Assembly: GCA_964646495.1 (NCBI GenBank)
Contig: CAZYEO010000001.1
Location: forward strand, 383 to 64,382
Source: an uncultured Muribaculaceae bacterium
Lineage (GTDB): Bacteria; Bacteroidota; Bacteroidia; Bacteroidales; Muribaculaceae
DNA length: 64,000 bases
Direction: 5' to 3'
The position numbers were made by a program, and so were the translations under genes. The notes under the pieces were generated by a model. The model searched no databases. It was not told the DNA's origin and saw nothing but the letters and a program-made list of their open reading frames with translations. This document shows positions 31,391-55,000 of the stretch, in pieces. The first letter of the stretch is position 1, and each line of letters begins with the position of its first letter.

Positions 31391-31433
31391 TGAATCGATG
31401 GAGCTTATTGCAATTGGGCGTTGAAATAATTAT
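31391..31433. repeat. Left copy of a perfect 43-bp direct repeat bracketing the PUL
   Basis: tgaatcgatggagcttattgcaattgggcgttgaaataattat is identical base for base to 54958-55000. Its last 4 nt overlap the stop codon of the regulator gene. Confidence 0.95.
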
Positions 31434-34351
31434 AATTTCTGGAGATATTCGGCGAGATTTGTATCTCTACTCAATTCCATCTTTTTGCGTAATCTGTACC
31501 GAGCCATTTCCACGCTTCGGAATGAAATATTCATAAGTGGTGCAATATCTTTTGAACATAGCCCCATTTTAAGATAAGCACATAGCCTCTGATCTCCCAA
31601 ATTCAGCTGTGGATACTGTTCAAGCAAGCGATTCATGTAATTTTCATAAACAATATCAAAGTTACGGATAAAATTGCGCCAATCGTCGTCGTGACTTATG
31701 CTCTCTTTTGTTATATTTTGAATTTTATTGAGTTGTTTGTTTGCCGAAATACTTAAACTACCATCATTTTCGCTTTCCTGTAATTTGGAAATCATAGCGG
31801 AAATATCCATTAATATTTCATTTTTACGAATCATATTCATGGTTATATTTGATAGCTCTTCTGATTTGCTCTTGATGTCATGCTCCAATTGTTCGTTCTT
31901 GAGGTGAGCTATTTCATAATTTTTGCGTATGGTCTCTTCTTCTGCTTTATGCTTTATTTCTTCTAATTCCTTTTCTTTGCGTTGCAGTATTGCGCGTGTG
32001 GCATCTTGGTATGATTTTTTTATGTATTTTATGGTAAATACTAATAGGATTATAAACATGATAAAATATACGCAATAAGCCCAAATACTTCTATACCAAG
32101 GAGGTAGAATTGTAATTTTTAAAGAATATTCAATGTTCTCACCATCGTATGTATCAATAGCCTTTATTCGTAATATATAGTTTCCTTCTGCCAATCGTGT
32201 GTATTCTTTGGTGTTGATGCGTGATAAAGAACTCCATTCTTCATCATATTTCTCAAGTAAACAACTGTACAGCACCGCATTTTCAGCCCGATATTCGGGC
32301 ATAGTGTAGATAAAACGCAATGAATTATGTTTATACGGTATATTTATGCATGTATCGTATTTCTCTTTCGTGGTATTGAAAATCAAAGAATCATTTTCAA
32401 CCGTTGAAAATATTTTAATTATAATATTGTGTTTTTCCTTCACATATTCTTTGTTGTCTTTTAATTTTATTTCGTAAAAACCATCTTGGTTTGAAATAAT
32501 AATTGATTGGTCGTTAATGAAATTCAAGTCGTTGAAACCGGCAATTATTTTATTAGAAAGTGGCTTGAAGCTTAATGAATCGACATCATATCCACCTCTG
32601 TTATTCCGATATGCTACCTGCAATAGATTATAAGAAATATTCCATATATCATTGTTTGTGGGTTGATATATTTTTGCACTTGGATTATTTTTGAAAAGAT
32701 TGTCTAATTTAGCATCACTTATAAATGAATCACTTTCGGCAACGTATTTGAAAAACCCTCCGGGTGAAGATATTATAAACTCATTGTTCACAATGTTAGG
32801 AATGTTATTATAATCGGCAGGAAGTCCTGTTGCTTTGTTGAATAACTTGTCAATGGTGAATTCTGATAAATTTTCGTTCAATATAAGCTTATATACACCC
32901 TTCATCCAATGTCCTATCCATATATTACCCCATTTATCTTCTATTACATTGCTCCCGGCTTCATTAAATCCATTTATTTTATTTGCTAAACTCCATACAC
33001 CGTTTTTGTTTTGGATAAGGTAGAAACTGTTATAGGTAAATGCAAGCGCATACCCCGGATGCTTTTTCAGCTTAGTTACAGACCATGTGCCGGGAATAGA
33101 TTTTATCTGCGACCATTGTCCATTTAAGTTTTGATATAATCCGGCATCGCAACATGCAAAAAGGCTTTTACCAATTGTATCAATACTCCACACTTGTCCC
33201 TTTATGATTGATTCCATTTCGGTGGGTTTTTTGTTAGACTCCAATGGATATACAGTAGAATATAGACCATGGTTAGTACCCATAAATAGAGTTTTGTCTA
33301 TGAGCAATGATGCATATCCTGCTCCATATATTGTAGGATTGCCTAATACGTTGGATATTGGAGAGTTATGCAGTACATAATCAATTCCATTGTCTAAGCC
33401 CAACCATATATTTTTAAGTTTATCTATATATATATTCAAAACGGTGTTATTTTGCATGCCGCTTAAAGTGTTGAGGAAAGTGCTCTCATTGGTATGACAG
33501 TCTTTTATTACTATTCCTAAATTCACTGTTCCGAATATTAAATTGTTATTGCTAATGGTGGCAGTAAATACTTGATTTTCTCGGAGAAAGGGATCAATAT
33601 CCAATTTTAACGGTTTTATTGAGTTTCCGTTATAACTATATACACCATCTAAAGATGTAACTATCAATAATTGATCGAATGGTAAGAAACTATTTAATAT
33701 TGCAACAACTTTTTTCCCTATTATAAATTCGTTTCCGTTTATTGGTATGAATTTATTACCGGAAAGCATATTTATCCCCTTGTTAATAGATGCCACATAT
33801 ATTTTATTGTCGATTAAGGCTGATGTAGTTATTTTATCATCGAAATGAATCGTAGAAGTTACATTGCCGTCATAACATAATAGATCGTAGTCGCTTTGAA
33901 ACCAATAATCATTATCTTTTTTGAAAATATTCCAGATTTCGGTCAAATGTATATTATCATCTTTTAGGGTAGGAATTAAACTATAATAGTCGAGGTCGCC
34001 ATTTATATTATTGTTCTGAAAATATCCAAATTCCGATGAACCACCAACGTATATACGACCATTCCTGTTGTCAATGTTTATCGAACGCACAGTTGTGTGG
34101 TTGGAATTATAGTGTTGTTCCCATGATTTACTATCAAAAGATAATAATCCTTTATCGTTGCCGAAATACATTCTCCCCAAACTATCCTGTGCAGCCGCCC
34201 AATTTTGAGTGCCAGCATTATAAAGCGATCTACTGAAATTTCTTACCAATGGATATGAAGCTTGCATTTCTAAATATGAAGATATAGCAATTATCATCAC
34301 TATGAATATCTTAAAATATCGAAATGAATGATTAAATATATCTTTTGTCAT
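31430..34351 (-). CDS. PUL regulator: periplasmic two-component-regulator-propeller / Y_Y_Y sensor domain, one TM, coiled coil and C-terminal LuxR(GerE)-type HTH (no kinase or receiver)
   Basis: 973 aa. It has repeated Reg_prop-like beta-propeller blades, a Y_Y_Y-like Ig region (YSCLLEKYDEEWS...GNYILRIKA) and a TM segment (IWAYCVYFIMFIILLVFTI). The C-terminal HTH is GDQRLCAYLKMGLCSKDIAPLMNISFRSVEMARYRLRKKM. Confidence 0.85.
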   Translation of the reverse strand: MTKDIFNHSFRYFKIFIVMIIAISSYLEMQASYPLVRNFSRSLYNAGTQNWAAAQDSLGRMYFGNDKGLLSFDSKSWEQHYNSNHTTVRSINIDNRNGRIYVGGSSEFGYFQNNNINGDLDYYSLIPTLKDDNIHLTEIWNIFKKDNDYWFQSDYDLLCYDGNVTSTIHFDDKITTSALIDNKIYVASINKGINMLSGNKFIPINGNEFIIGKKVVAILNSFLPFDQLLIVTSLDGVYSYNGNSIKPLKLDIDPFLRENQVFTATISNNNLIFGTVNLGIVIKDCHTNESTFLNTLSGMQNNTVLNIYIDKLKNIWLGLDNGIDYVLHNSPISNVLGNPTIYGAGYASLLIDKTLFMGTNHGLYSTVYPLESNKKPTEMESIIKGQVWSIDTIGKSLFACCDAGLYQNLNGQWSQIKSIPGTWSVTKLKKHPGYALAFTYNSFYLIQNKNGVWSLANKINGFNEAGSNVIEDKWGNIWIGHWMKGVYKLILNENLSEFTIDKLFNKATGLPADYNNIPNIVNNEFIISSPGGFFKYVAESDSFISDAKLDNLFKNNPSAKIYQPTNNDIWNISYNLLQVAYRNNRGGYDVDSLSFKPLSNKIIAGFNDLNFINDQSIIISNQDGFYEIKLKDNKEYVKEKHNIIIKIFSTVENDSLIFNTTKEKYDTCINIPYKHNSLRFIYTMPEYRAENAVLYSCLLEKYDEEWSSLSRINTKEYTRLAEGNYILRIKAIDTYDGENIEYSLKITILPPWYRSIWAYCVYFIMFIILLVFTIKYIKKSYQDATRAILQRKEKELEEIKHKAEEETIRKNYEIAHLKNEQLEHDIKSKSEELSNITMNMIRKNEILMDISAMISKLQESENDGSLSISANKQLNKIQNITKESISHDDDWRNFIRNFDIVYENYMNRLLEQYPQLNLGDQRLCAYLKMGLCSKDIAPLMNISFRSVEMARYRLRKKMELSRDTNLAEYLQKL

Positions 34352-34414
34352 TACTTATTGCTTGTTTAAATAAGAATGTGTTTTTTAACAAATGAATTAT
34401 ATTAATAATTTAGT

Positions 34415-34422
34415 CAAATATA
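34415..34422 (-). promoter_or_regulatory. Bacteroidetes -7 box TATATTTG for the regulator gene
   Basis: Plus-strand CAAATATA, 64 nt upstream of the ATG at 34351. Confidence 0.35.
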
Positions 34423-34456
34423 TAAAAAATAATATTGTTGATGTGTTGGTTCGCTT

Positions 34457-34701: not shown

Positions 34702-37700
34702 ATGAATAAAAAGATATTATGCTTATGCTTTTTGTTATTTGCGTCAATAGGTATTGCGCAAAATCTAAAAGTTCAAGGAACAGTAACGCAGGCTGAAGAT
34801 GGAGAGCCTCTTGTAGGTGCTCCTGTGCTTGTAAAAGGTAATCCATCTCTATCGGTTACAACAGATATTGATGGCAATTACATTATCAATGTGCCTATGG
34901 GAAAAACTTTAGTTTTTTCATATATAGGATGTAAACCTATTGAAAAAGTAATAAACGAATCACAACAATTAAATGTGCAACTCACAGCCGAGAGCCACAT
35001 GCTCGATGAAGTTGTGGCAATAGGTTATGGAACCATGAAAAAAAGTGATTTAACGGGTGCTGTCTCAACTATATCATCCGATAAATTGCAGAAAACGCCT
35101 GCCGCCAGTCTCGCCAATGCTTTGCAAGGACAAGCAGCCGGAGTGTCAGTAAACTCTAATACCGGTCAGCCGGGCGCCGCACCCGAGGTGAGAATACGTG
35201 GTGTAGGGACTATTAATGGAGCATCACCTATATATGTAGTAGATGGAGTGATTGTAGAAGATATCTCGTTTTTGTCACCCAATGACATAGAGCACACAGA
35301 GGTGCTGAAAGATGCCTCAGCAACAGCTATTTATGGTTCGCGTGGAGCAAACGGTGTAATCATTGTTACCACTCGTGGAGGTAAAGTAAATAAAAAAACA
35401 AACATTACATTAGATGCATATATCGGTTTGCAACAACGATACCGTAAACTCGATGTAATGAATGCAAAGCAATTTGCTGATACTTATGTGGCTATCAATG
35501 GCAATAAATCTTCGCGTAAGGTATATGAAGAACAAGGATTTAATAAATGGTTGGGAATATATCAAGGAATAAATTCATCAATCTATCACCCTACCATATA
35601 TGATGCAGAGAAAAATCCCAATGGTTTGGATTATTCTAAAATTGATACCGATTGGCAAGATGAAGTATTTCGCGATGCAATGATTCAAAATTACCACTTA
35701 GCATTTGATGGTGGTAGCGAAAAAACAACTTACTCCATGTCAGGCAGTTGGTATTCTCAGGATGGTACTATTATGGGTAGTAATTATCAGCGTTTGACGG
35801 TGCGATTAAACACTTCACATAAAGTAACTGACTGGTTGAAGATTGGAGAAAATATATCATTTATGAGTTCTACTTCTCGTTCATCGCTCAATAATAGTGA
35901 ATCGGCAGGTGCATCAATATTATCAGCAGCATTAGCAATGGCTCCGTGGGATCCTGTAAGATACCCCCAAGGTTCAGTGAATAAAAATGGTAAAGATTTA
36001 AGTGGAGGGATAAGTGCAGGTTCTAATTTTAAGAATGTAACCAATCCATATAGTATGGTTGAATATTCGCATCCTTCTAACCGTAGCGAACGATTTGTAG
36101 GCATTGTCTATGCAGAATTGACTCCTATTAAAAATCTTACTTTGCGCTCAAGCTATAGTTTTGATTATAACATAACTACAGCCAAGCTATTTAAAGATAA
36201 ATATGAGGTATCAGCTTACGATAAATCGGACAAAAATTTCTTATCATCAGATATTTTCCGCTATTATAATTGGAATGTAGATAATATTGCTACTTACACC
36301 AATTCTATCAATGATCATGATTTTTCGGTTATGGCAGGACAAACTATTGAGGAATATAACACTTATGGTATAGGTAACTCGGGTTCGTCAATTCTTAATC
36401 CAGAAGAACGTAATTGGTACTTATCGCAAGTGACCGATGATTTTGGTCGCCCAGGAGACACTGTGGGTCGTAGTCGTAGATTCTCATTTTTAGGGCGTTT
36501 ATATTACAGTTTCAAAAACCGTTATATGCTGACTGTCAATTTCCGTGCTGACGGTAGTAGCAAATTTGCTGAAAAGCCATGGGGTTATTTCCCATCTACT
36601 GCTCTTGCTTGGAGAATCAGCGAAGAATCTTTCATGAAAGATATTACTACCCTCGACATGTTGAAGCTTCGTGTAGGTTGGGGTAAGGTAGGTAACGATA
36701 AGATCAATGACAATGCGTTTATCCTAAACATGTTTAATCAAGGTCCATCATTTGTCGATTATGTATTTGGTAAAGATCAACAACTTGCCAATGGTGCCAC
36801 TGTACTTACATGGATAAATAATGGTGGTCACTGGGAGAATACCGAACAATGGAGTTTAGGCGTAGATTTCGGATTATGGGGATCAAGACTCACCGGGTCG
36901 GTGGATTTATTTATACGCAACACCAATGACATGCTAATTGGAGTCACTGCTCCGGCTCATGTGGGTAACCGTTATGCAGGTATGAGCAACGTTGGAACAG
37001 TGAGCAACAAAGGTGTTGAATTAACTTTGGATTATCGTAATAATATAGGTGATTTAAGTTACTCCGTTGGTGGAAACATATCATTTATCAAAAATAAAAT
37101 GACCGGTCTTAATGGTGGATCACCAGTGTATGGCGGCTATTCTAATATTACAGTTGTGAATGAAGGATATCCATTATATTATTTCTGGGGATATCAATAC
37201 GACGGAATGTTCCGCACAGACGAAGAAGCACTTGAATATCTTCATGGATATACTGCCAATGACATCCCTTTCCATGCCGGAGATGCTAAATATCGTGATG
37301 TTAGTGGCGATGGTAAAATCGATGATAAAGACCGTGTGGATTTAGGTTCAAGTATTCCTACCATTAATTATGGTATAAATATTGGTGCCGGCTATAAGGG
37401 ATTTGATCTCCAATTATTTTTCCAAGGAGTAGGTGGAAATAAAATTTACAATCAAGTACGCCATCGTTTAGAGAGCACAGGTACAACATCTGTTCTTTCC
37501 CCTATAATGGTTGATGCATGGACTACAAATAATCCTGATGGAACAATTCCAAACCCCAAAAACTCAATCAATTACTATGCGTCAAGCCGTTTTCTTGAGA
37601 GCGGGGCGTATTTCAGGTTGAAAAATCTGCAAATCGGTTATACTCTTCCTGCTGCAATTTCAAAAAAAGCATTCTTGCAAAATTGCCGATTCTATCTTCA

Positions 37701-37824
37701 AGGTAGCAACCTCTTTACCATTACTAAATATAATGGTTATGATCCAGAAGTTGGCGGTGGCATAGACTATGGAAACTATCCTCAATCGCGTACTTATATC
37801 TTTGGTGTCAATATTACTTACTAA
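34702..37824 (+). CDS. SusC/RagA-family TonB-linked outer-membrane transporter
   Basis: 1040 aa. It has a signal peptide, a CarbopepD_reg-like N-terminus (VQGTVTQAEDGEPLVGAPVLVKG), a SusC-type plug (DEVVAIGYGTMKKSDLTGAVS; NGASPIYVVDGV) and the terminal FGVNITY. A SusD gene follows immediately. Confidence 0.95.
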   Translation: MNKKILCLCFLLFASIGIAQNLKVQGTVTQAEDGEPLVGAPVLVKGNPSLSVTTDIDGNYIINVPMGKTLVFSYIGCKPIEKVINESQQLNVQLTAESHMLDEVVAIGYGTMKKSDLTGAVSTISSDKLQKTPAASLANALQGQAAGVSVNSNTGQPGAAPEVRIRGVGTINGASPIYVVDGVIVEDISFLSPNDIEHTEVLKDASATAIYGSRGANGVIIVTTRGGKVNKKTNITLDAYIGLQQRYRKLDVMNAKQFADTYVAINGNKSSRKVYEEQGFNKWLGIYQGINSSIYHPTIYDAEKNPNGLDYSKIDTDWQDEVFRDAMIQNYHLAFDGGSEKTTYSMSGSWYSQDGTIMGSNYQRLTVRLNTSHKVTDWLKIGENISFMSSTSRSSLNNSESAGASILSAALAMAPWDPVRYPQGSVNKNGKDLSGGISAGSNFKNVTNPYSMVEYSHPSNRSERFVGIVYAELTPIKNLTLRSSYSFDYNITTAKLFKDKYEVSAYDKSDKNFLSSDIFRYYNWNVDNIATYTNSINDHDFSVMAGQTIEEYNTYGIGNSGSSILNPEERNWYLSQVTDDFGRPGDTVGRSRRFSFLGRLYYSFKNRYMLTVNFRADGSSKFAEKPWGYFPSTALAWRISEESFMKDITTLDMLKLRVGWGKVGNDKINDNAFILNMFNQGPSFVDYVFGKDQQLANGATVLTWINNGGHWENTEQWSLGVDFGLWGSRLTGSVDLFIRNTNDMLIGVTAPAHVGNRYAGMSNVGTVSNKGVELTLDYRNNIGDLSYSVGGNISFIKNKMTGLNGGSPVYGGYSNITVVNEGYPLYYFWGYQYDGMFRTDEEALEYLHGYTANDIPFHAGDAKYRDVSGDGKIDDKDRVDLGSSIPTINYGINIGAGYKGFDLQLFFQGVGGNKIYNQVRHRLESTGTTSVLSPIMVDAWTTNNPDGTIPNPKNSINYYASSRFLESGAYFRLKNLQIGYTLPAAISKKAFLQNCRFYLQGSNLFTITKYNGYDPEVGGGIDYGNYPQSRTYIFGVNITY

Positions 37825-37839
37825 TAAAACTCATTAACG

Positions 37840-39447
37840 ATGAAATTTCAAAAAAATATATATATAGTAGCTTTTGCTTTTGGCTTGCTTATGTCGTTTT
37901 CTTCCTGTAATGGGTGGCTTAAAGAGCCATCGCCAGGCAAAACAGAATTACCCGACTTCTTTACAGGCGGAAAGGCAGCTATCCAATGTGTGAATGCAGC
38001 TTATACCCCTCTTGCATGGGAATATAATAAAACATATTGTTCGGAATGGTTTATCGGAGATATAGCATCTGATGATGCACTCAAAGGTGGACAAAATGTT
38101 GCTGACGGACAGCCATATTATGATATCGAGAACTTTAAGGTGAATGCCAATAATGAATTGTTGCTCGATTTCTATCGTGGGCAATATCAAGGCATAGCCC
38201 GTTGTAATCTTGCAATTAAGGAGATACCTAATGTTGATCCTGATGAGGATATGACAGAAGCCCGCAAAGATTGTCTTATAGGCGAAGCTTATTTCTTGCG
38301 TGCATTATATTATTTTCGTCTTGTAAGAATATATGGAGGCGTACCATTGGTTGACTTTGTGATAGATAGTTCAGAAAAATGGCAACAACCTCGCGCTTCA
38401 AAGGAAGATGTATATAATCACATTATAATTGATCTTGCTAAAGCTAAAGATCTCCTTTGGGAGAAGTCAGCCTATGCTGATGCTGATCTTGGGCGTGCTA
38501 CTCGTGGTGCAGCGATTGCAATGCTTATGAAAACGTACCTATGCATGCATGATTATGCAAATGCTTATAAATATGGCAAATTATTCATGGAGGAGGAAAA
38601 TCAAAAACAATATTCTCTATGCAACAGATATTTAGACAACTTCACTCTTGCTGGTGAAAATGGTGTAGAATCTGTATTTGAAATACAATATATGGCTGAG
38701 GGTACGAGTGACTATGGAGAAGGGTTCGGGTTCACACGCGGTACATTCACCACAATATTGGTTCGTCCTCGTCTGAGCAGTTTAGGAGGCAGAAGCGGGT
38801 GGGGGTTCAATCATCCTACCAAAAATTTATATGATGAATATGAGATAGGTGATCCTCGTCGTGAAATTACCATCGGTGTACCAAGTGAGTCTGATCTCGA
38901 AAATGTAGAAGTGTCATATTTAGGTAACTACTATTATAATTTGAAGTATTCTTATTATGATTGGGATCTTAAACAATTTCCGGCTACCGATCATGCCACT
39001 CGTTCACCACTTAACTATAAATTGATAAGATTATCGGATGTAATGTTGATGTTTGCCGAGGCATCTGTAGAAACGGGTGATAATACAAGCGCAAAAAAGA
39101 TGCTTGAGGATGTCCGTAGCCGAGCACGTCAGAATTCTGATGTAAATAATGTACTTCCTTCGTTCCCAGGCTACAATGGATATGCCGACAATTCCGATGA
39201 TCTTCGTAAAGCAATCCGCCACGAGCGCCGTGTGGAGCTTGCAATGGAGGGACATCGCTGGTTCGACCTGGTACGTTGGGGCATCGCTTACGAAGTATTA
39301 GACAAGACAAACGGTTCATACCCTCGGACAGAAACTCAAGAGGCACGAGATGAAATGGCATCATTCATTCAAGGTAAAAACGAGCTATTCCCGTTGCCAT
39401 CAGAAGAAATCCATCTTAATCCGATGGATCAAAACGAAGGATATTAA
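37840..39447 (+). CDS. SusD/RagB-family nutrient-binding outer-membrane lipoprotein
   Basis: 535 aa. It has a lipoprotein signal (LLMSFSSC), a TPR-like SusD fold pattern (RALYYFRLVRIYGGVPL; ERRVELAMEGHRWFDLVRWG) and sits 15 nt after the susC-like gene. Confidence 0.95.
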   Translation: MKFQKNIYIVAFAFGLLMSFSSCNGWLKEPSPGKTELPDFFTGGKAAIQCVNAAYTPLAWEYNKTYCSEWFIGDIASDDALKGGQNVADGQPYYDIENFKVNANNELLLDFYRGQYQGIARCNLAIKEIPNVDPDEDMTEARKDCLIGEAYFLRALYYFRLVRIYGGVPLVDFVIDSSEKWQQPRASKEDVYNHIIIDLAKAKDLLWEKSAYADADLGRATRGAAIAMLMKTYLCMHDYANAYKYGKLFMEEENQKQYSLCNRYLDNFTLAGENGVESVFEIQYMAEGTSDYGEGFGFTRGTFTTILVRPRLSSLGGRSGWGFNHPTKNLYDEYEIGDPRREITIGVPSESDLENVEVSYLGNYYYNLKYSYYDWDLKQFPATDHATRSPLNYKLIRLSDVMLMFAEASVETGDNTSAKKMLEDVRSRARQNSDVNNVLPSFPGYNGYADNSDDLRKAIRHERRVELAMEGHRWFDLVRWGIAYEVLDKTNGSYPRTETQEARDEMASFIQGKNELFPLPSEEIHLNPMDQNEGY

Positions 39448-39523: not shown

Positions 39524-40495
39524 ATGAAAAAGATGACTCTTTTTGCTGCTGTGGCAGCACTCAGCATTGGTATGATCAATGCACAAGATTTTGTAACCGA
39601 CAAACCCGGATTATCAGGTCCAAAAGCCGCCGGAGCTGTGTTTGACGTATTGCAATTAGATCCAATTTCGGTTGAAAGTTTGAAAACAGCAGGGAAAACA
39701 GTAAATGATTTTTCTCTTGACAACACTACTCGTTGCTGGTATATATGGACTGATACATTTAAAGCCGGAGAATCGAGCAATCCTGGTGTTGATGATCAAA
39801 CAGAAGGATATATATCAATGGAAGTACTAAATCAAGGATGGTCGGGTGCAGGTTTTTGTATTCTTGATGGATCGCCGATTGATTTGTCACATGTAAGCGA
39901 GGATACGCATTTCCATATGGGTCTTAATACATATAATGCTCCTGCAAGTGTAGCAGTAATAGCGTTTGATGGTAAAGATTTTGCAGATCCTAAAAACCCT
40001 GTTGCATCAGCACCATTTAAAGGTTCAGTAGGTAAAACTGCTTTTGTTGATAATGGAGCTACTTTTCCTCTTCTTGGTAATTTTGGAACAGGAGAAAATG
40101 AAGGTGAATGGGTAGCTATAGATATTACGCTTAAAGATATGAAAAAAATGTGGCCGTCTTTTAATTTTAATGGCACGAAAGCATGGGCAGGTAACATCTT
40201 TGCTATTTTAGCAGGTGGCGTTCCTGGAACCGCTGTACAAATTGATGCCGTATATTTTTATACTCCAAGCGGAAGTGGTAGCGTAGGTAGCATATCATCT
40301 GATGATGTAGCTATCATAGTTTCAGATAAGACTATCAGTGCAGCAGGAACAGATAATGCACCTATGCAATTGATAAATATGGGTGGTCAAACCGTGAAAA
40401 CTTCTAACACTTCAATTATGGGTGTTGAGAATATTGCTAACGGTATTTACATCGTAAAAACTGCCGGTGTTACTAAAAAGGTAATTATTAAATAA
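39524..40495 (+). CDS. PUL-encoded putative surface glycan-binding protein with T9SS C-terminal sorting domain
   Basis: 323 aa. It has a signal peptide MKKMTLFAAVAALSIGMINAQ (no lipobox Cys) and no recognisable catalytic motif. The C-terminus is ...MGVENIANGIYIVKTAGVTKKVIIK (Por_Secre_tail type). It occupies the position after susD that SGBPs normally take. Confidence 0.65.
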   Translation: MKKMTLFAAVAALSIGMINAQDFVTDKPGLSGPKAAGAVFDVLQLDPISVESLKTAGKTVNDFSLDNTTRCWYIWTDTFKAGESSNPGVDDQTEGYISMEVLNQGWSGAGFCILDGSPIDLSHVSEDTHFHMGLNTYNAPASVAVIAFDGKDFADPKNPVASAPFKGSVGKTAFVDNGATFPLLGNFGTGENEGEWVAIDITLKDMKKMWPSFNFNGTKAWAGNIFAILAGGVPGTAVQIDAVYFYTPSGSGSVGSISSDDVAIIVSDKTISAAGTDNAPMQLINMGGQTVKTSNTSIMGVENIANGIYIVKTAGVTKKVIIK

Positions 40496-44981: not shown

Positions 44982-44998
44982 TCTAAATTATTTTGTTG

Positions 44999-46552: not shown

Positions 46553-46606
46553 TCCCTTAATACAAAATTTAAATATAACAAACATGAATAGAAAACACTT
46601 TTTTTG

Positions 46607-48757
46607 ATGCTTGCATTTGCATCCATTACAAGCTTGGTGTCGGCTAAGTCCATAATTAATTGGAATGTAGCCACAAATCTGTTGCAAGATGCAACGGTGG
46701 TAACATCTTCTACAAGAGCGATTGAGGATCAGCCAATCAATATTACAGATGGAAATATTTCTACTGGATGGCAGGCTGTAGAGAAAGCTAATAATGTAGT
46801 TGGCAACCCTGATTGGGTAATTATTGATCTGGGATCCAAGAAACATATTGCTGATGTTGAAGTAGCGCAGCAAGATGCTCTTGCTACTAAATATGATTTT
46901 TATTTAGTAGATGCAGTTCCTTCATATTTATCTCGTGAAATTAATACTGGCACAGAAGAAGCTCCCAATCTTGTAAATGTGAACTATATTACTGATGATT
47001 GGTATACGAACAACACTCCTGTTTATACTCATAATGAAGATGAAGTTGGATACGACAAAGCATTGAAAGGTACTAACTATGACACACACGCAGTAGATGC
47101 AGTGGGGCAATATATTGTTATTGTCGCTAAGGAATATAATGTGTGGGGCGAAGGCTATGGAATGAAAATATGGGAAGTGCGTGCTACCGAAAAAACGAGT
47201 GACATAGATAGCCCAAAGACTATCACCTTGTCGGATTCTTCTGTGAAAAACGGACAAATGATTTCAACCACTTTAACCGCAATAACCGTAGGAGGAAAAG
47301 AGATAAATGATATATCTGCGTTTACAAATATAAATCTTACTATAAGCGATAATGCTGCTGCTGATATTGTCGATAAAGGGAACGGCACATTTGAAATCAC
47401 TGGTAAAAAAGTAGGAGAGTACACATTAACAGCGAAAGCGAGCCTAAATGGTGAAGAAGTAACAGCAACAGCAATTTTGAATGTATTATTCAGTTGGGAT
47501 AAAGCTACCGATGTTGCTCTTAATAAAACAGCTACTGCAAGCCACAACTCTGCAAATGCTTATAAAGCAATAAATGGAAGTGGAAACGGATGGGAAGTTG
47601 GCGAAAACATTACTACTGGCACATGGTATCAAGTAGATCTTGGAGGAGATTATAAAATTTCAGCTATTGGAGTTCAATGGGAAACCGCTTATGCCAATCA
47701 TTATAAATACTACTATGCTACAGAAAAAGATGGTGACGGTGAACCCAATTGGATAGAATTACTTGAGGTAAATACCTACAAAACAGCTGATAATCAAACT
47801 ATATTTACAGATGTATTTAGTGAAGTGACTGCTCGATATATTAAATTGGAATGTATTCAAAGTCAAGTATGGGGTATGCACTTTTTTAATTTCAAAGTTG
47901 CCGGTGTGCCGTCAGCATCACCTGTGCCTACTACTATGATTATTAATTCTTCAGCCAACGGGTTGTTTATTGGTGAATCGGCAACTATAACATCTGTAGT
48001 GAAAGATCAATTTGGAAGCTTGATGGATATCGCTCCAGAATTGACTATCACTGACGGAACTGAAACCGGAACTATTACTGGATCTGTTTTTACCTCTACT
48101 GCGAAAGGGACCGCCACAATTACTGCTAAAGCCGGTGATCTTGTAAAAACTATTGATATAGTAATTGCCGCCGATAAAAATAAATATCTTATCAAATCTG
48201 GTGCATCAGCGATAACCAATACAGATGAGAATGGAGCAAAGGCTATCGACAAAGACATAAACACATATGTTGAATTCCCCATTGCTGATTTCCCAAGCTC
48301 AATCACAGTGAAACTTGACAATTTGTATATTCTTGACATGATCACTATAGATTGGGAGCGTGCTTGTCCTGCCGACTATACAGTTACCCTTGCAACTGAT
48401 GAAGCCGGGTTGGATACTAATACTCCGATACATGTAGTAGCTGATAGACCAGATCCTAACGCAAACATACAGGACCGTATTTATGGCAAAACCATGAAAT
48501 CTGTGAAATATATTAAGATTAATATGACAAAAGCTGCTACCCCTTGGGATGTGAAATTATTTGAAGTCAGCCCTTATGGTGTTATTGATCCAGCTACAGG
48601 TGTAGGAGCGATAGCAACCGACAAAGCCAATATTCCGGTTGATGTATATTCCATCAGTGGCAACTTGGTTCGCAAATCAGTATTACCTGAAGATGCAACC
48701 AAGGATTTAGCTCCAGGTTTTTATATTGTGGGAAAAGAGAAAAGGATAGTAAAATAA
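46607..48757 (+). CDS. Multi-domain F5/8 type C (discoidin/CBM32-like) + Big_2 protein with T9SS C-terminal sorting domain; 5' end affected by a T7 tract
   Basis: About 716 aa. Discoidin-like modules include ITDGNISTGWQA...DWVIIDLG and ALNKTATASHN...TWYQVDLGGDYKISAIGVQWE. Ig-like Big_2 segments are present. The C-terminus is ...LAPGFYIVGKEKRIVK. An upstream ATG at 46584 (MNRKHFF-stop) would join in frame if the T-run 46599-46605 had 8 T instead of 7. Confidence 0.75.
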   Translation: MLAFASITSLVSAKSIINWNVATNLLQDATVVTSSTRAIEDQPINITDGNISTGWQAVEKANNVVGNPDWVIIDLGSKKHIADVEVAQQDALATKYDFYLVDAVPSYLSREINTGTEEAPNLVNVNYITDDWYTNNTPVYTHNEDEVGYDKALKGTNYDTHAVDAVGQYIVIVAKEYNVWGEGYGMKIWEVRATEKTSDIDSPKTITLSDSSVKNGQMISTTLTAITVGGKEINDISAFTNINLTISDNAAADIVDKGNGTFEITGKKVGEYTLTAKASLNGEEVTATAILNVLFSWDKATDVALNKTATASHNSANAYKAINGSGNGWEVGENITTGTWYQVDLGGDYKISAIGVQWETAYANHYKYYYATEKDGDGEPNWIELLEVNTYKTADNQTIFTDVFSEVTARYIKLECIQSQVWGMHFFNFKVAGVPSASPVPTTMIINSSANGLFIGESATITSVVKDQFGSLMDIAPELTITDGTETGTITGSVFTSTAKGTATITAKAGDLVKTIDIVIAADKNKYLIKSGASAITNTDENGAKAIDKDINTYVEFPIADFPSSITVKLDNLYILDMITIDWERACPADYTVTLATDEAGLDTNTPIHVVADRPDPNANIQDRIYGKTMKSVKYIKINMTKAATPWDVKLFEVSPYGVIDPATGVGAIATDKANIPVDVYSISGNLVRKSVLPEDATKDLAPGFYIVGKEKRIVK

Positions 48758-48918: not shown

Positions 48919-51900
48919 ATGAACTTAACAAAAATAATCGTTGGTGCGCTTTTAATGTCGTTCTCCTTTGGGCTGTCTGCTCAAGAGCCGGTGCAGATAG
49001 GCGCAGCAAGCTATGCAGCATATCCCCCTTTATATAAAGGACGTACTGATGCACATAATGGGGACTTAAGCTCATTGATGCAGACAAAAAAGCTATATAT
49101 CAATGAATCGGATAAAATGGATGACGGACAACGTCGCCCCTTACCCACCAACGATTGGTGGACAGGTCTTATTAATGCTCCTTTTGCTGACGCTCTTTGG
49201 GCTTATCCACAAATGGTACACCCTTTTGAGGCAGGTATTACTATTAACTATCCTTCATATTGGAACGAGAATGGAACCGAAGTAAAATCAAACTCAAACA
49301 TTACCATTAAAGGTGTTAAATTCACAGCTGTGTCTGCCATAGCCCATGATTGGCATGACTGGGATGTAGAAATGCTTATGTCGGGAGCCGACGGCAAACA
49401 AGAGATGTATGTTACCTTGGCGCATGGCATCCCTTTTACTTGGATTGAACTTAAAGAATTTTCACCTCGCATTACATTTTCATCTTCTGCAGAATATTTC
49501 GACGTAGAGGGAAATAAACTTGATATTTCTGATATATTATCTTATGCCGACAACAAAATCACGGTGAAAATAGGGAGTGATTATTACGGCATATTTGTGC
49601 CTGACGCTACCGGATATAGTATAAAAGATGGAGCATTGGCATTGGTATTTGCTGAAACGAAGAAACAATTTATCTCGGTAGGAATGATGAAAAATATTTC
49701 AGACTTAAAAATTTTTGCCGAATATGCCTATTCAGTACCTCGCAAAACTACAGTTTCTTGGAATTTTGATGAATATAAAGCAGAACTCACTACTAAATGG
49801 CAAATAGATGCAGAAAACTTGCTTGATAAAGCTAAGCCTGCATTGGTGATGCAAGGATTTCTACCTCACGCCTATAAAGATGCTTTGAGTAAGCCATCCT
49901 TTCAGTCTGAGTCATATTTATCTCCTCGTGGGAGATTGAAAATTGCTACACCATCATCGGACAATATTTATACCTTCTCTTATAGATTTTCGGGTATGCT
50001 ACCATATTATGCTGCTCCCAAAGAGAATAATGCTGAAGCTAATCCGTATATCAAAGATCGCATGACAGACCTTATGACTAAATATGCCAAAAACGGCACA
50101 TTTGGTAACGATACATATTGGGGTGGTAAAGGATTGACGCAGATGGCTCTGAATATGACATTTGCACATGAAATGGGCGACGAAGAAAACTTTAAGTTGA
50201 GTAAAGATAAATTAAAAGCTAAATTGATCGACTGGCTCACCTTTACTCCCGGTGAAGAACAGGTTTTTTTCTCATATTATCCTCGGTGGGGAAGTTTGGT
50301 AGGACATGAAACATCGTATGATTCCGATGCTTTCAATGATCACCATTTTCATTATGGCTATTTTATATATTCAGGCGCGTTGTTGTGCATGATGGATAAA
50401 GATTTTAGGCTCAATTACGGACCTATGTTGCGTTTAATTGCAAAAGATTATGCCAATTGGGAACATGATGATAGCCAATTTCCTTTTTTGCGTACATTGG
50501 ATCCGTGGGCAGGTCATTCCTATGCAGGGGGTCTTGGCGACAACGCTAATAGTAATGGGAATGGACAGGAGTCATCATCGGAAGCAATGCAATCATGGGG
50601 TGCCATATATTTGCTTGGAGTTGCACTTAACGATAATGCAATGCGTGATGCCGGGATATTCGGTTGGAGTACAGAATCTCGTGCCACTGCTGAATATTGG
50701 TTTGACCGCGACCAAATACATCCTGAAAAAGAACATAACTATGACTACACCCTTTACACATCACCATATTGTACCAATCTTACCTCGAAAGGTATAGGTT
50801 GGTGGACATGGTTTAGTGGTGATGCTTTGTGGATGCATTCTATTCAATGGATGCCTGTGTCACCTTGTTTGAACTATTTGTCGCAGGATTTGGATTTCGT
50901 GAAATGGGATTATGATAAAATGATGAGTGCCACGGCATATAAATGGTTTGATGCCGTAGGTACAAATGCCCCCTTAGCTAATCAATCGGTAGGCAATGTG
51001 GTATTATGTTACATGGAGCGTTCAAATCCCGATGAAGCCGCTAAAATATTTGACAGGGCTTATGAAGAAAATTATGGGATTGCTACAGGTATTGATACCG
51101 GACATATATCATATTTTACAATTCAATCACACCGTACGTATGGTGATATAGATTTTTCGGTGCATGCAGACATCCTTACAGCTACAGCTTATAAGAAAAA
51201 GGATGGCTCGATGACATACATGGCATACAATTCGTATGATACGGAGAGGATGGTAAGATTTTTCAAAGATGGAACCACTGTAGCTACGGTGAAAGTGCCT
51301 GCACGGAGTTTGGTTGCTTACGGTGTTGCTGCTGTAGCTTCATCGGTAGTGATGGAATCAGCTGAAGGATTAATCATGCCTCCATCTGCAAAATCTTTGT
51401 TATCTGTTAGTGTTTTGGATCAATATGGGGCAACAATGGATGATGTTAAATATTCATTCGTTGTGAGTGATGCCAATCTCGCTTTTATAGATGGCAAAAA
51501 CATATTGAACATCAATGCTACTGCCACAAAAGGATCTAAATTTACCGTTACGGTTAAAGTGAATGATGATATAAAGAGTGTAATGGATTTTACAGTGAAC
51601 GACATTCCGGTGATAGCATCAGCATCCATTACTCCTCAACTTAAATATCTTGAAAAAGGTGATAAGGCTACATTTACGATTGACCCTATAGATCAATATG
51701 GCAATTTTATGAACTTGGATATTGATTGGACTATAACAAAAGGAGGCAAAAAGGTTTCAGACTCCAATGTGCTTGATGCAACTGAAATCGGCATATATGA
51801 TATTGAAGCCAATATCGGAGGGAAAAAATATACTCAACAAGTATATCTTACACCTAAATTTAACAATGTAGCCTTGAATAAAACAGCCATTTCCAGTAGT

Positions 51901-54867
51901 GAAGAAAATGTCGGAACTCCTACAAAATTTGTAAATGATGGAGATAATACTACTCGTTGGGGAAGCAATCATAATGAAAATGAATGGATATATGTGGATC
52001 TTGGCGAAAATTGTTATATATCTAAAGTAAATATAAATTGGGAAGATGCCTATGGTAGTATATATGATATTCAAATAGCATCCGATGGTGCAACGACCGA
52101 ACAATTTAATGGAATATATGCGGGCACAACTGTGAATAAAACAGTGATTTCTGAAAAAGAATGGAAAACAGTTGTTTCAGTAACCGATAATGCCAGTAAA
52201 GGTGATAATACTCAAGTTATTGGCACAGAAGGAAGATATGTGAGGATGAAAGGAATAAAACGAGCTACAAATTATGGATACTCTATTAAAGAATTTGAGG
52301 TTTTTGGTATTCCTAAATCTTTACCTCAAGATGGAATAATTGGTATTGATATATTGTCTCCCGATTTTATGGATGAAGATGATTTTGCTATACTTGAAGC
52401 AAAGGCATATACTCTTGATGGAAAAGAGATAGCAAAAGATGTTGCATGGGAGTGCGAGGCTGAAAAAGCAACAATCGACGGAAACAAATTCGCACCATCT
52501 ACCTATGGCAGAATGGAAGTAACGGCAAAGTCATCAGATGGCTACTCGGCTGTGAAAAATATCATGGTAAATGAGGTGGTTAAACTTAAATCATTGAAAA
52601 TAACTCCCGAAAACACTCAAATCCTTCTTGGAGATGATATCGCTTATTCCATATCCGGTCTTAATCAATTCGGTGGAGAATATGAATTCAATACATCAAC
52701 ACTTGCAGTAGAAATAAGCAATGTTACGGATCCTGAAAATGTATTTGTGGTAACAGACGGAAGTGCATATTACCATATGTCAGACAATACTTTTGGCTCT
52801 ACAAAGGTAGGAGATTATAATCTTAAATTTGTAAGTGGAAATGTCGTTAAAAATGTGCTTATTGGAGTGGCAGATGTGTCAAAAGCCAACTTGGCACTTA
52901 ATCGTCAAGCCACAAGTTCCTCCTCATATGGGATAAATACTGCATCTAAAATTAATGATGGCGATGTACTGACACGATGGGAAAGTGATAAAGCTGATGG
53001 TGAATATGTAACTATCGATCTTGAATCACCTTTCGTGTTGGATCGCATGAATGTGATATGGGAAGCAGCTTATGCCACAAATTACCATGTGATGGCGTCG
53101 ATGAATGGTGACGCGTGGACTAATATTTTGACTAAAACAGATGGCGATGGTGCTACTGATTCTTTCACCATATCGCCTGTGCCTGCACAATATGTGCGTC
53201 TGATATGCGACAAACGTGCCGTAGTAGATTATGCGAATAGTATTTATGAATGGGAAATTTATGGTTTATCTCGATTCACAGGAGAAAATGACAATAAAGC
53301 ACCTGTAATTTCGGGGTTTAATATCCAGCCTGACGGAGCACAACTCACAATCAAAGCTAATGCAAACGATGATTCAGGATATATATTCTATACCCTTACA
53401 CGCACCACATCGGGCGTAATAAATGGTAATCCTGTGGAGGTGTCCTCTTACTCTAAGTCGGGCGAAGAAATTTCAATTACATCCGTGGGTTTGAAAGATA
53501 ATGTAGAATATATTTATACTCTTACAGCTACCGATCCATTTGGGAATAAAAGCTCCCGTGTTATAAAACATACTGCCGAGGTGTCAATAGATGGAGTGAA
53601 TCTTGCTCTTAATAAATATGCTTATGCTTCTTCGGCCGAGAACCCGGCTTTAGTAGCTCAATACGCTGTAGATGGTAACTCAGATACGCGTTGGGGAAGT
53701 GAATTTAATGATAATGAGTGGATAACAGTGGATCTTGCAGATGCATATCTGATTGATAACATCAAAATTAAGTGGAATAACTTTGCTTTTGCTACTAATT
53801 ATGATGTGTCAGTATCAATTGATGGTGACAAATTTGATAATATATATTCCAAAGAAGGATTCGTAGGAGGTGAGGAAAATATAGTTGTATCACCGACTGC
53901 TGCTCGATATATTAGGATTGTAGGGCTTAAACGTTCATCAATATATGGTACGAGTATTGATGAGCTCGAGGTATATGGTAGCGATATGTTGTTGAGCATC
54001 ACCGGTGCCGTGAGACACAATATACGCCTTGAGGGTCGTTGGGATAATAAAATATTTGCAGCATTAGATAGTAAAGATGCTACCAGTTATGATGTAACAT
54101 CCGTAAGCCAATTCCCGGAATCGATTACTACTCTAAATCCAAATTGTTTGATATATGTTCCATCTTCCTTTACATCGGCTCTTCATCCAAATATGGTTAA
54201 GGTAAATGAGGAAAATTACCAAGCCAATTCAATAGAATTATATGATGGATTTAATTTTGAATCTCTTCACGATATTTCTGTCGGAGGCGACATGGAATTT
54301 AATAAGTCTATGACAGGCGCTGTAATTCCAATAATTTTACCATTCCCTATAGAGGGAACGGAATCCATGAAAATAGCTTTACCCGATACTGAAAGAAATG
54401 ATGCAGTGTGTTTTTATTTGTCGGAAAATAATAAAAGTGAAGCCAATCAACCAATTGTATTGAAACTCACCACATCAATCAGTAAAATTAAAGGTGCAGG
54501 TAATATATTGTATCGTTCATCGACTTCAAGAATAAACCAAATCACCGGAACATATATGTATAAACCTGCTTTCGAGGGGGAATATCGTTGGCAAAACGGA
54601 GTTTTCGTGCGTCAAATATCTGGTGACGATTTTAACCCCTTTGAGTTGGTTGTGGAATATAGCTCAAATCTCTCCTCGGAATTACCTTTGAAGGTAACCG
54701 ATGTTCCAACAGGAATTGAAGAAACGAGAGAGGATATGAATGTTATTGTAGATGTTTACAATATTTGGGGGATTAAAATACGTGCAAAAATTCTGAAATC
54801 AGAAGCCTTCAAAGGTCTTCTTCCGGGTGTTTATATATCTAATGGTGAAAAAATAATAGTGCGGTAA
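48919..54867 (+). CDS. Giant GH81 endo-beta-1,3-glucanase with Big_2 and three F5/8 type C modules and T9SS C-terminal sorting domain
   Basis: 1982 aa with a signal peptide. GH81 motifs are LPTNDWWT, FNDHHFHYGYFIYSGALL and NGQESSSEAMQSWGAIYL. The three discoidin modules lie at about 51868-52310, 52891-53265 and 53601-53982 (each ALN+xxxSS...DG...TRW...W..VDL). The C-terminus is ...LPGVYISNGEKIIVR. Confidence 0.85.
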   Translation: MNLTKIIVGALLMSFSFGLSAQEPVQIGAASYAAYPPLYKGRTDAHNGDLSSLMQTKKLYINESDKMDDGQRRPLPTNDWWTGLINAPFADALWAYPQMVHPFEAGITINYPSYWNENGTEVKSNSNITIKGVKFTAVSAIAHDWHDWDVEMLMSGADGKQEMYVTLAHGIPFTWIELKEFSPRITFSSSAEYFDVEGNKLDISDILSYADNKITVKIGSDYYGIFVPDATGYSIKDGALALVFAETKKQFISVGMMKNISDLKIFAEYAYSVPRKTTVSWNFDEYKAELTTKWQIDAENLLDKAKPALVMQGFLPHAYKDALSKPSFQSESYLSPRGRLKIATPSSDNIYTFSYRFSGMLPYYAAPKENNAEANPYIKDRMTDLMTKYAKNGTFGNDTYWGGKGLTQMALNMTFAHEMGDEENFKLSKDKLKAKLIDWLTFTPGEEQVFFSYYPRWGSLVGHETSYDSDAFNDHHFHYGYFIYSGALLCMMDKDFRLNYGPMLRLIAKDYANWEHDDSQFPFLRTLDPWAGHSYAGGLGDNANSNGNGQESSSEAMQSWGAIYLLGVALNDNAMRDAGIFGWSTESRATAEYWFDRDQIHPEKEHNYDYTLYTSPYCTNLTSKGIGWWTWFSGDALWMHSIQWMPVSPCLNYLSQDLDFVKWDYDKMMSATAYKWFDAVGTNAPLANQSVGNVVLCYMERSNPDEAAKIFDRAYEENYGIATGIDTGHISYFTIQSHRTYGDIDFSVHADILTATAYKKKDGSMTYMAYNSYDTERMVRFFKDGTTVATVKVPARSLVAYGVAAVASSVVMESAEGLIMPPSAKSLLSVSVLDQYGATMDDVKYSFVVSDANLAFIDGKNILNINATATKGSKFTVTVKVNDDIKSVMDFTVNDIPVIASASITPQLKYLEKGDKATFTIDPIDQYGNFMNLDIDWTITKGGKKVSDSNVLDATEIGIYDIEANIGGKKYTQQVYLTPKFNNVALNKTAISSSEENVGTPTKFVNDGDNTTRWGSNHNENEWIYVDLGENCYISKVNINWEDAYGSIYDIQIASDGATTEQFNGIYAGTTVNKTVISEKEWKTVVSVTDNASKGDNTQVIGTEGRYVRMKGIKRATNYGYSIKEFEVFGIPKSLPQDGIIGIDILSPDFMDEDDFAILEAKAYTLDGKEIAKDVAWECEAEKATIDGNKFAPSTYGRMEVTAKSSDGYSAVKNIMVNEVVKLKSLKITPENTQILLGDDIAYSISGLNQFGGEYEFNTSTLAVEISNVTDPENVFVVTDGSAYYHMSDNTFGSTKVGDYNLKFVSGNVVKNVLIGVADVSKANLALNRQATSSSSYGINTASKINDGDVLTRWESDKADGEYVTIDLESPFVLDRMNVIWEAAYATNYHVMASMNGDAWTNILTKTDGDGATDSFTISPVPAQYVRLICDKRAVVDYANSIYEWEIYGLSRFTGENDNKAPVISGFNIQPDGAQLTIKANANDDSGYIFYTLTRTTSGVINGNPVEVSSYSKSGEEISITSVGLKDNVEYIYTLTATDPFGNKSSRVIKHTAEVSIDGVNLALNKYAYASSAENPALVAQYAVDGNSDTRWGSEFNDNEWITVDLADAYLIDNIKIKWNNFAFATNYDVSVSIDGDKFDNIYSKEGFVGGEENIVVSPTAARYIRIVGLKRSSIYGTSIDELEVYGSDMLLSITGAVRHNIRLEGRWDNKIFAALDSKDATSYDVTSVSQFPESITTLNPNCLIYVPSSFTSALHPNMVKVNEENYQANSIELYDGFNFESLHDISVGGDMEFNKSMTGAVIPIILPFPIEGTESMKIALPDTERNDAVCFYLSENNKSEANQPIVLKLTTSISKIKGAGNILYRSSTSRINQITGTYMYKPAFEGEYRWQNGVFVRQISGDDFNPFELVVEYSSNLSSELPLKVTDVPTGIEETREDMNVIVDVYNIWGIKIRAKILKSEAFKGLLPGVYISNGEKIIVR

Positions 54868-54895
54868 ATATAATAAATAATTATATTAAATTCAT

Positions 54896-54940
54896 AGATG
54901 GGGATGCGCTTATATTTTATGCTCATCTCCATCTTCATTT
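54896..54940 (+). terminator. Terminator hairpin at the end of the PUL
   Basis: The stem pairs agatggggatg (54896-54906) with catctccatct (54924-54934), with one G-U pair. It is followed by tcatttta. Confidence 0.55.
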
Positions 54941-54957
54941 TATTCATTTAAAAATAT

Positions 54958-55000
54958 TGAATCGATGGAGCTTATTGCAATTGGGCGTTGAAATAATTAT
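54958..55000. repeat. Right copy of the perfect 43-bp direct repeat bracketing the PUL
   Basis: It is identical to 31391-31433, and the repeat starts are 23,567 bp apart. It lies between the PUL terminator and the asnA promoter. Confidence 0.95.

Follow-up and report, generated by a model that had tools for sequence, protein, structure and literature searches.

A PUL Bracketed by a Perfect 43-nt Direct Repeat in a Muribaculaceae Genome, Possibly an Island without Its Own Recombinase

How did a complete PUL come to lie between an AI-2E family transporter gene and asnA, with the same 43 nt at either end and no mobility gene in between? In the reading that we favor, to which we assign a probability of roughly 0.4, the two copies of the 43-mer represent attL/attR-like junctions of a 23.5-kb island that lacks a recombinase and whose sole content is a complete PUL, predicted from its enzyme families to act on beta-1,3-glucan. 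The relevant features are listed here in coordinates of the window, the whole 64-kb stretch of DNA from an uncultured gut bacterium that was analyzed, with genes assigned by Pfam unless stated otherwise.

30176–31312, minus strand: AI-2E family transporter gene, left flank
31345–31338, minus strand: Bacteroidota-type -7 box (TATCTTTG) of the AI-2E gene, read from the sequence, outside the repeat
31371–31390, plus strand: degenerate leftward extension of the left repeat copy, 12/20 identical to 54938–54957 (P ~0.0035)
31391–31433, plus strand: left 43-nt repeat copy, candidate attL-like junction; its last 4 nt are the regulator stop codon plus one base
31430–34351, minus strand: PUL regulator, 973 aa, with Reg_prop, Y_Y_Y and LuxR/GerE HTH domains; low GC (0.327)
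34702–37824, plus strand: SusC-like TonB-dependent transporter (Plug, TonB_dep_Rec, CarbopepD_reg_2)
37840–39447, plus strand: SusD-like protein (SusD_RagB, SusD-like_3)
39524–40495, plus strand: 323-aa protein with no family match and a weak T9SS C-terminal match
40655–41839, plus strand: GH16 with a weak (sub-threshold) T9SS sorting domain match
41864–42736, plus strand: GH16, tandem paralogue of the preceding gene
42756–44981, plus strand: GH3 beta-glucosidase-type enzyme
44993–46552, plus strand: Glyco_hydro_cc (PF11790), GH128-like, with a weak (sub-threshold) T9SS sorting domain match
46604–48757, plus strand: F5/8 type C (carbohydrate-binding) domain protein
48919–54867, plus strand: GH81 endo-beta-1,3-glucanase-type protein, 1982 aa, with F5/8C domains; last PUL gene
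54897–54934, no strand assigned: stable hairpin after the GH81 stop, folding on both strands
54938–54957, plus strand: degenerate leftward extension of the right repeat copy, counterpart of 31371–31390
54958–55000, plus strand: right 43-nt repeat copy, candidate attR-like junction, between the GH81 terminator and the asnA promoter
55050–55057, plus strand: asnA -7 box (TATCTTTG)
55085–56119, plus strand: asnA, right flank

Extended base by base, the repeat is perfect over exactly 43 nt, and its two copies, both on the plus strand, are spaced 23,567 nt from start to start. The count within the window is two even with up to 3 mismatches allowed (0 expected from 100 shuffles). A third copy, exact or degenerate, was not found there: the next-best ungapped match on either strand reaches 25/43, the level of the maximum in shuffled sequence (24–26), and separate searches with each third of the 43-mer at up to 2 mismatches gave no extra copy. 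The middle third, a 13-mer, shows a mild excess of 2-mismatch matches (13 vs 5.8 expected), mostly within genes. To the right of the repeat, similarity ends immediately; to the left, weak similarity continues for 20 nt, at a level rarely reached by random intergenic 20-mer pairs, and such a one-sided degenerate extension fits the pattern expected of attB/attP arms. The 43-mer is unstructured (folding z-scores 0 or above), unlike REP or MITE elements, and the count, which covers the 64-kb window, gives two perfect copies and no degenerate ones. Folding rules it out as a structured element. A known RNA family was likewise rejected, the only Rfam matches in the window being a tRNA and a SAM-II riboswitch, both elsewhere, and so was a coding remnant, the six frames, read by eye, containing just one 8-codon ORF (MELIAIGR*).

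The repeat copies sit at the two ends of a single functional unit, as would fit insertion of that unit as a whole. On the left, the repeat copy takes in the regulator stop codon and one further base, from the last codon, and the regulator C-terminus (...EYLQKL*) falls at the position native to its family. On the right, the copy begins 23 nt past the strong hairpin (~54897–54934) that follows the GH81 stop and ends 85 nt ahead of the asnA ATG. An earlier note on this DNA had placed the repeat at these positions and at this spacing, with a 4-nt overlap of the regulator stop on one side and a location between the terminator of the last PUL gene and the asnA promoter on the other, and exact matching, base-by-base extension and the regulator ORF all agree with it. 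The same note had stated that the interval holds the PUL (regulator, susC/D, all GHs) and nothing else, without an integrase or transposase. Both statements are upheld: Pfam matches and a coding density of 96% leave room for PUL genes only between 31434 and 54957 (biggest gap, 350 nt), and a domain scan found no integrase or transposase in any ORF of the interval or in the other ORFs scanned within the 64-kb window. The SusC-like and SusD-like genes are adjacent, and the glycoside hydrolases (GH16 twice, GH3, PF11790 and GH81) are co-located with a dedicated Reg_prop/Y_Y_Y/GerE regulator, as is expected of a PUL.

To which class of element could such an interval belong? It shares with ICEs and IMEs the direct repeats at both ends, and it has neither its own integrase or recombinase nor conjugation genes; the scan likewise found no relaxase/oriT or conjugation domains. 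With direct repeats on both sides and no recombination genes, it corresponds to elements of the H47 genomic island or CIME type. A composite transposon or other IS-mediated insertion was rejected, with no transposase, no inverted repeat at the inner ends and no IS remnant found in the 23.5-kb interval; to our knowledge, target-site duplications are all far shorter than 43 nt. A Xer-dependent IMEX at dif was also rejected, on the grounds of GC skew: the cumulative curve shows no lasting sign change across the window, which therefore contains no replication terminus.

Once the interval and one repeat copy are removed, the AI-2E transporter gene and asnA are separated by 205 nt, a normal divergent promoter region similar in length to the ~203–243 nt found upstream of AI-2E genes in relatives. 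Both flanking promoters stay intact around the repeats, and the asnA promoter block that is conserved in relatives starts at 55006, right behind the right copy (sigma-70 scans carry no meaning for Bacteroidota promoters). Based on this anatomy, we propose the following model. A circle consisting of the PUL and one 43-mer would have entered the divergent promoter region by recombining with a single 43-mer present there, duplicating the 43-mer and sparing both promoters. The recombination function would be supplied by the host, either as a recombinase encoded elsewhere or through homologous or RecA-independent repeat recombination. The same repeats could excise the PUL again, yielding the 205-nt intergenic region and a 23,567-nt circle, and recombination between direct repeats of 43 nt is a mechanistically plausible way to lose a PUL. 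The donor was probably compositionally similar, of the same species or genus rather than distant, and the event may be younger than the split from all sampled relatives; a bound calculated by hand, P(no difference) = exp(-43d) ≥ 0.05, puts pairwise divergence at ~7% or less. No terminator follows the regulator as it now lies; in a circular permutation, the hairpin at 54897–54934 would come after it. Because this hairpin folds on both strands, it would terminate transcription in both directions in a circularized interval. The earlier note's cassette-like insertion is partly supported, with a repeat unique in the window, one bracketed functional unit, intact promoters and a plausible empty site; mobility is what we infer from this anatomy. 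Against the model weigh the lack of any recombinase found in the window and the origin of the first duplication of the 43-mer, which the model leaves unexplained.

The insertion reading is supported by a second integrase-less segment 1.4 kb from the PUL interval, a 3.3-kb low-GC island at a tRNA-Asp gene. It is bracketed by a perfect 100-nt direct repeat that starts 13 nt inside the tRNA-Asp, and this repeat, too, has a degenerate extension on one side. The proteins of the island had no PADLOC match, and its repeat is absent from IMG/VR. It is conceivable that the self-contained PUL travels as a 23.6-kb circle from strain to strain, needing just a 43-nt intergenic sequence of the host and recombination functions that the host encodes, and that the tRNA-Asp islet does likewise, but we consider so active a traffic doubtful.

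What do related genomes say about an empty site? The nearest relatives encode an AsnA 85% and an AI-2E transporter 71% identical to those of the window, and their synteny is fully scrambled. At none of 80 asnA loci from GTDB species does AI-2E or any other window gene lie within 10 kb; the asnA neighbors are unrelated to the window and not conserved even across the 16 closest loci. In two relatives AI-2E is divergent from a dacB (Peptidase_S13) gene and not from asnA. These different neighborhoods of asnA and AI-2E in the nearest relatives count against the model. The window has none of the genes that adjoin asnA or AI-2E in relatives, and the 43-mer is absent upstream of both genes in relatives. 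Because synteny is too scrambled at such distance, these genomes neither confirm nor refute the empty site that the earlier note had predicted. Neither a conspecific nor a congeneric genome is present in the data searched. Each of the 14 window proteins that were looked up stands alone in its 90%-identity cluster among 15 billion proteins and is known from the source contig only, and exact-protein look-ups of the window proteins AsnA, AI-2E and P0001 returned no record. Searches of protein clusters, GTDB species genomes, JGI metagenomes and IMG/VR found neither an empty site nor a circular junction, and neither a donor nor a second strain. The 43-mer has 0 matches in GTDB species genomes and its 24-nt core 0 matches in JGI metagenomes and in IMG/VR, which indicates that the source genome is absent from these collections.

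The composition of the PUL bears on the age and source of the proposed insertion. Its codon usage is indistinguishable from that of the flanks, and its tetranucleotide correlation with them is 0.93–0.95, as against 0.96–0.98 between the flanks. The best PUL homologues are 53–73% identical (best regulator homologue, 53%), and the donor search found no PUL protein with a relative at ≥90% identity. Because the PUL is compositionally native and its closest homologues are this distant, nothing points to a recent foreign origin; matching codon usage and distant homologues would, rather, argue against recent foreign acquisition. Homologous PULs on other contigs, of Muribaculaceae or related Bacteroidales, lie in three different housekeeping contexts, and this apparent difference in placement between genomes fits a unit that is inserted as a whole. 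The AsnA and AI-2E of the nearest relative share samples, and the closest regulator homologue was found in other samples.

The native composition, and a divergence of the PUL homologues about as great as that of the flanking genes, would be expected if no mobile cassette were involved and the PUL had long been resident. In that case, a chromosomal rearrangement that placed the AI-2E operon beside the regulator would, as a side effect, have put a copy of a 43-nt segment from upstream of asnA, originally of at least 63 nt, at the far end of the PUL; tandem duplication followed by deletion and template switching in break repair are candidate routes. The region upstream of AI-2E is indeed a synteny breakpoint with respect to the two relatives in which dacB faces AI-2E, and upstream of asnA in one relative, L006, there is a weak resemblance to the 3' end of the 43-mer (20/23 matches, E=0.6) that is not significant. 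At least two precise events would be needed, however, with end points falling by chance at the regulator stop codon and at the edge of the repeat, and the tRNA-Asp island of the same anatomy would be left unaccounted for. We regard local rearrangement as unlikely.

The flanking of the PUL could also be coincidental, or serve regulation, if the 43-mer belonged to a dispersed family of intergenic repeats or cis-regulatory elements with further copies elsewhere in the genome, for instance an upstream binding site around the ATTGCAAT palindrome common to the AI-2E and asnA promoters. Both copies do lie ~45–100 nt upstream of a Bacteroidota-type -7 box, the 13-mer excess described above points the same way, and the copy count covers the 64-kb window. 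Against this, there are just two copies in the 64 kb and no degenerate ones, and the sequence is unstructured; a binding site would not hold 43 nt perfectly identical, the sequence is missing upstream of AI-2E and asnA in relatives, and the 13-mer matches fall mostly in coding sequence. We consider a dispersed element quite improbable. The topology of the assembly deserves the same scrutiny, given that the window comes from a single metagenome-assembled contig: a population with an empty site and a PUL segment that share the 43-mer, the latter as a circle or in another strain, might have been assembled with the loop threaded into the chromosomal path. A de Bruijn graph with k up to 43 cannot separate the integrated form from the excised form plus empty site, and the PUL–flank tetranucleotide correlation is slightly below that between the flanks. 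But the repeated sequence must exist in both contexts anyway, codon usage is equal in PUL and flanks, and the final k of common assemblers exceeds 43, long enough to span the repeat. Such a misthreaded loop seems to us highly improbable.

Elements of the anatomy that we favor, a repeat-bounded island moved by functions it does not encode, are known from other bacteria. Streptococcal CIMEs are att-flanked, lack recombination and conjugation genes, and are believed to depend on a related integrative element for movement in trans; their att sites are common to identifiable ICEs or IMEs of the same species. The present interval resembles them in being repeat-flanked without recombination genes and differs in that no partner element or integrase lies within the 64-kb window. 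The term CIME itself occurs in two reviews (PMC5704250, PMC7563491). The H47 genomic island of Escherichia coli, also recombinase-less, excises and integrates by host functions independently of RecA (Azpiroz et al., PMC3191183, PMC5426353). Like the PUL interval, it combines one functional gene system with direct-repeat flanks and no encoded recombinase; unlike it, H47 belongs to another phylum, carries other cargo and has extensive but imperfect repeats, whereas the repeat described here is short and perfect. H47 attachment sites are widespread among E. coli strains, and its mobility has been demonstrated, whereas that of the present island is inferred.

The closest precedents in cargo are the ICE-borne PULs for carrageenan and porphyran of human gut Bacteroides, which are flanked by 16- and 21-bp direct repeats with single-copy empty sites and which, on excising, leave the ancestral arrangement behind (Pudlo et al., bioRxiv 10.1101/2020.06.09.142968). 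In both cases a whole PUL lies within identical direct repeats adjoining housekeeping genes. The ICE-borne PULs, however, come with integrase and conjugation or mobilization genes and 16–21-bp repeats, and their single-copy empty site is known in PUL-less strains; the interval described here holds PUL genes only within a 43-bp repeat, and the locus is known from one contig. The view of the earlier note that a clean scar of PUL acquisition is uncommon must therefore be narrowed, since direct-repeat scars are documented for ICE-borne PULs; what is unusual is the complete absence of mobility genes from a repeat-bounded PUL.

The dietary and fungal glycans accessible to a gut Bacteroidales strain are set by its PUL content, and the routes of PUL transfer known to us depend on ICEs. 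If our reading is correct, a PUL would come and go as a bare cassette, through a long direct repeat recombined by the host, by a cheaper route that annotation pipelines would miss. Such a route would help to account for differences between strains in the glycans used by Muribaculaceae, of which few members have been cultured. The present case is one tidy example in one MAG. If the PUL and the tRNA-Asp islet did travel between strains as circles, which we consider doubtful, direct-repeat-bounded cassettes without a recombinase would be a general, ICE-free route of variation in glycan niche and accessory genes in this family.

In its gene order the PUL resembles Bacteroidales beta-1,3-glucan (laminarin-type) PULs, in which a regulator divergent from SusC is followed by SusD, a small protein, two GH16 enzymes and GH3. 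The 323-aa protein takes the place of the surface glycan-binding protein of the homologous PULs. Beyond GH3, up to which the homologous PULs were compared (10-kb flank or contig end), the PUL of the window adds a GH128-like enzyme, an F5/8C protein and the giant GH81.

Our analysis of the window places a beta-1,3-glucan-type polysaccharide utilization locus (PUL) between two copies of a perfect 43-nt direct repeat (the 43-mer), 23,567 nt apart. The earlier note had located both copies and their neighbours correctly throughout.

Features of the PUL region (gene order from Pfam annotation, the 323-aa protein apart; -7 boxes read from the sequence)
27796-30171, minus, TonB-dependent-receptor-like gene
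30176-31312, minus, AI-2E transporter
31345-31338, AI-2E -7 box, Bacteroidota-type, TATCTTTG
31391-31433, plus, left repeat copy, TGAATCGATGGAGCTTATTGCAATTGGGCGTTGAAATAATTAT
31430-34351, minus, Reg_prop/Y_Y_Y/LuxR regulator
34702-37824, plus, SusC
37840-39447, plus, SusD
39524-40495, plus, 323-aa protein
40655-41839 and 41864-42736, plus, two GH16
42756-44981, plus, GH3
44993-46552, plus, PF11790 enzyme, presumably GH128-like by family mapping
46604-48757, plus, F5/8C protein
48919-54867, plus, GH81, 1982 aa
~54897-54934, hairpin
54958-55000, plus, right repeat copy, TGAATCGATGGAGCTTATTGCAATTGGGCGTTGAAATAATTAT
55050-55057, asnA -7 box, Bacteroidota-type, TATCTTTG
55085-56119, plus, asnA
56379-56453, tRNA-Asp(GTC)

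Coding sequence fills 96% of the interval between the copies, with a largest gap of 350 nt, and Pfam bears out the earlier statement that no integrase or transposase lies inside; neither these nor conjugation domains occur in the interval or in the other scanned window ORFs. The regulator's C-terminus (...EYLQKL*) has the same end position as in homologues, and the repeat therefore begins at the native stop codon. The -7 boxes of AI-2E and asnA both fall beyond the repeat copies. A block GAGCAAAATGATACTAAAATTTG at 55006-55028, upstream of asnA, is also found upstream of asnA in distant Bacteroidales (loci L001, L009 and L070) and may represent a conserved promoter element or operator. Within the PUL, the last gene, GH81, is unusually large, with three F5/8C modules in its product, and the GH16 pair are tandem paralogues (72% identity over 85 nt). 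The T9SS C-terminal sorting domain is matched weakly, below threshold (18-24 bits; cut-off 27), by three PUL proteins: the 323-aa protein, GH16a and the PF11790 enzyme.

How might this arrangement have arisen? When the interval and one 43-mer copy are removed in silico, 205 nt of divergent promoter region remain, a length similar to that upstream of AI-2E in relatives (203-243 nt). In the predicted reciprocal circle of 23,567 nt, the regulator stop would lie 60 nt from the hairpin, which folds on either strand (segments that contain it: -29 and -18 kcal/mol, z ~ -2 to -3); in the present arrangement, no regulator terminator precedes the AI-2E promoter. The size of the predicted empty site and the placement of the circle's terminator therefore favor integration of a circular cassette. 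We propose, at a probability of roughly 0.4, that a PUL cassette in circular form entered the chromosome through one 43-mer, recombination being either supplied in trans or carried out by the host acting on repeats; the PUL could be lost via the same repeats.

Extended base by base, the identity between the two copies spans exactly 43 nt; on the left it gives way to weak similarity over 20 nt (12/20, P ~0.0035 versus random intergenic pairs), and on the right it stops immediately. The asnA promoter block kept in relatives (GAGCAAAATGA..., CAAAATGATACTAAAAT) starts 6 nt past the right copy. Among the rival explanations, a two-step local rearrangement duplicating the segment upstream of asnA is in our view unlikely. 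Slightly less likely again is that the 43-mer is a dispersed or regulatory repeat with further copies in the unseen genome. The window holds two matches at up to three mismatches (chance expectation 0) and no third copy on either strand, the next-best match (25/43) equaling the shuffled-sequence maximum; at up to two mismatches, neither the first nor the last third recurs in the window, and 2-mismatch matches to the middle third are only mildly in excess and mostly intragenic. Folding revealed no secondary structure on either strand, no Rfam family matched, and neither the 43-mer in GTDB contigs (one genome per species) nor its 24-nt core in JGI metagenomes or IMG/VR was found. An assembly path that threaded a 43-mer-sharing loop into the chromosome seems to us improbable.

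Searches with AsnA, AI-2E and the regulator assign the window to a lineage of uncultured Muribaculaceae. All 14 window proteins looked up are singleton 90%-identity clusters among ~15 billion proteins, each present only on one 72,139-bp NCBI contig; given also the absence of the 43-mer and its core, the searched public data thus offer no sequence from the same species or genus. In the nearest organism (AsnA 85% and AI-2E 71% identity, both genes in the same samples), asnA lies downstream of an unrelated 303-aa gene and AI-2E diverges from a Peptidase_S13 gene, as in a second relative (67%). Across 80 asnA loci of other Bacteroidales species, neither AI-2E nor any further gene of the window lies within 10 kb, and asnA neighbors vary even across the 16 closest loci. 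At the available distances synteny is thus scrambled completely, and the lack of AI-2E/asnA adjacency in the relatives' loci examined is silent on a recent event. The 43-mer is absent upstream of both genes in relatives; a 20/23 match to its 3' end in one relative (L006) is not significant. The cassette interpretation of the earlier note is anatomically coherent; the ancestral transporter-asnA region that it supposes is backed by no relative. The nearest relative's AI-2E contigs (L084-L089 and L097-L104), from at least 10 independent samples, all stop ~190-220 nt past the AI-2E stop codon, which suggests a repeat or strain-variable junction; in the window, the TonB-dependent-receptor-like gene follows AI-2E after 4 nt.

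RSCU distances of the ten PUL genes (0.07-0.13) lie inside the flanking-gene range (0.07-0.16), and tetranucleotide correlations are 0.93-0.95 for PUL versus flanks and 0.96-0.98 between flanks. The regulator gene has a GC content of 0.327, markedly below other PUL genes and flanks (0.36-0.42), with codon usage typical of the window. Homologous PULs of the same core order occupy three different housekeeping contexts on other contigs (Muribaculaceae or related Bacteroidales), at identities of 70-73% for SusC, 73% for GH3, 63-64% for SusD, 56-67% for GH16 and 52-53% for the regulator. Composition and identities therefore speak against a recent arrival from a distant donor or a sampled one; transfer inside the species or genus would fit them, as would long residence. 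Reckoned by hand from P(no difference) = exp(-43d) >= 0.05, the perfect pair does no more than cap pairwise divergence at about 7%, an age still well below that of the separation from every relative sampled.

Within the window, a tRNA-Asp island 1.4 kb from the PUL offers the strongest support for interpreting the two 43-mers as attachment-site-like junctions. The island is bounded by a direct repeat of 100 nt without mismatch (56441-56540 and 59739-59838), extended in degenerate form on one side, which begins 13 nt within the 3' end of tRNA-Asp and takes in the downstream terminator hairpin. The two copies enclose 3.3 kb of low-GC sequence that carries DUF4352, DUF4359 and PIN_8 genes and is clearly deviant in tetranucleotide correlation (0.85-0.88). 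No integrase lies within this islet, its proteins have no PADLOC match, and the 100-nt repeat was not found in IMG/VR. Islet and PUL are built alike: the repeat core is perfect, a degenerate arm extends it on one side, and a recombinase is lacking. The islet sits at a classical integration target.

PULs borne on ICEs, whose repeats measure 16 and 21 bp and whose empty sites have been verified (bioRxiv 10.1101/2020.06.09.142968), are a precedent for a PUL between direct repeats, and the H47 island of E. coli, excised without RecA or a known site-specific recombinase (PMC3191183, PMC5426353), for an island without its own recombinase. The locus is no ICE, IS composite or IMEX; it fits best among the genomic islands that lie between direct repeats and encode no recombinase, as a further example whose cargo is a PUL. 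Elsewhere in the window, a SAM-II (long-loop) riboswitch match above the gathering score (20804-20862, minus) immediately precedes the S-adenosylmethionine synthetase gene (19449-20747, minus), an ordinary arrangement.
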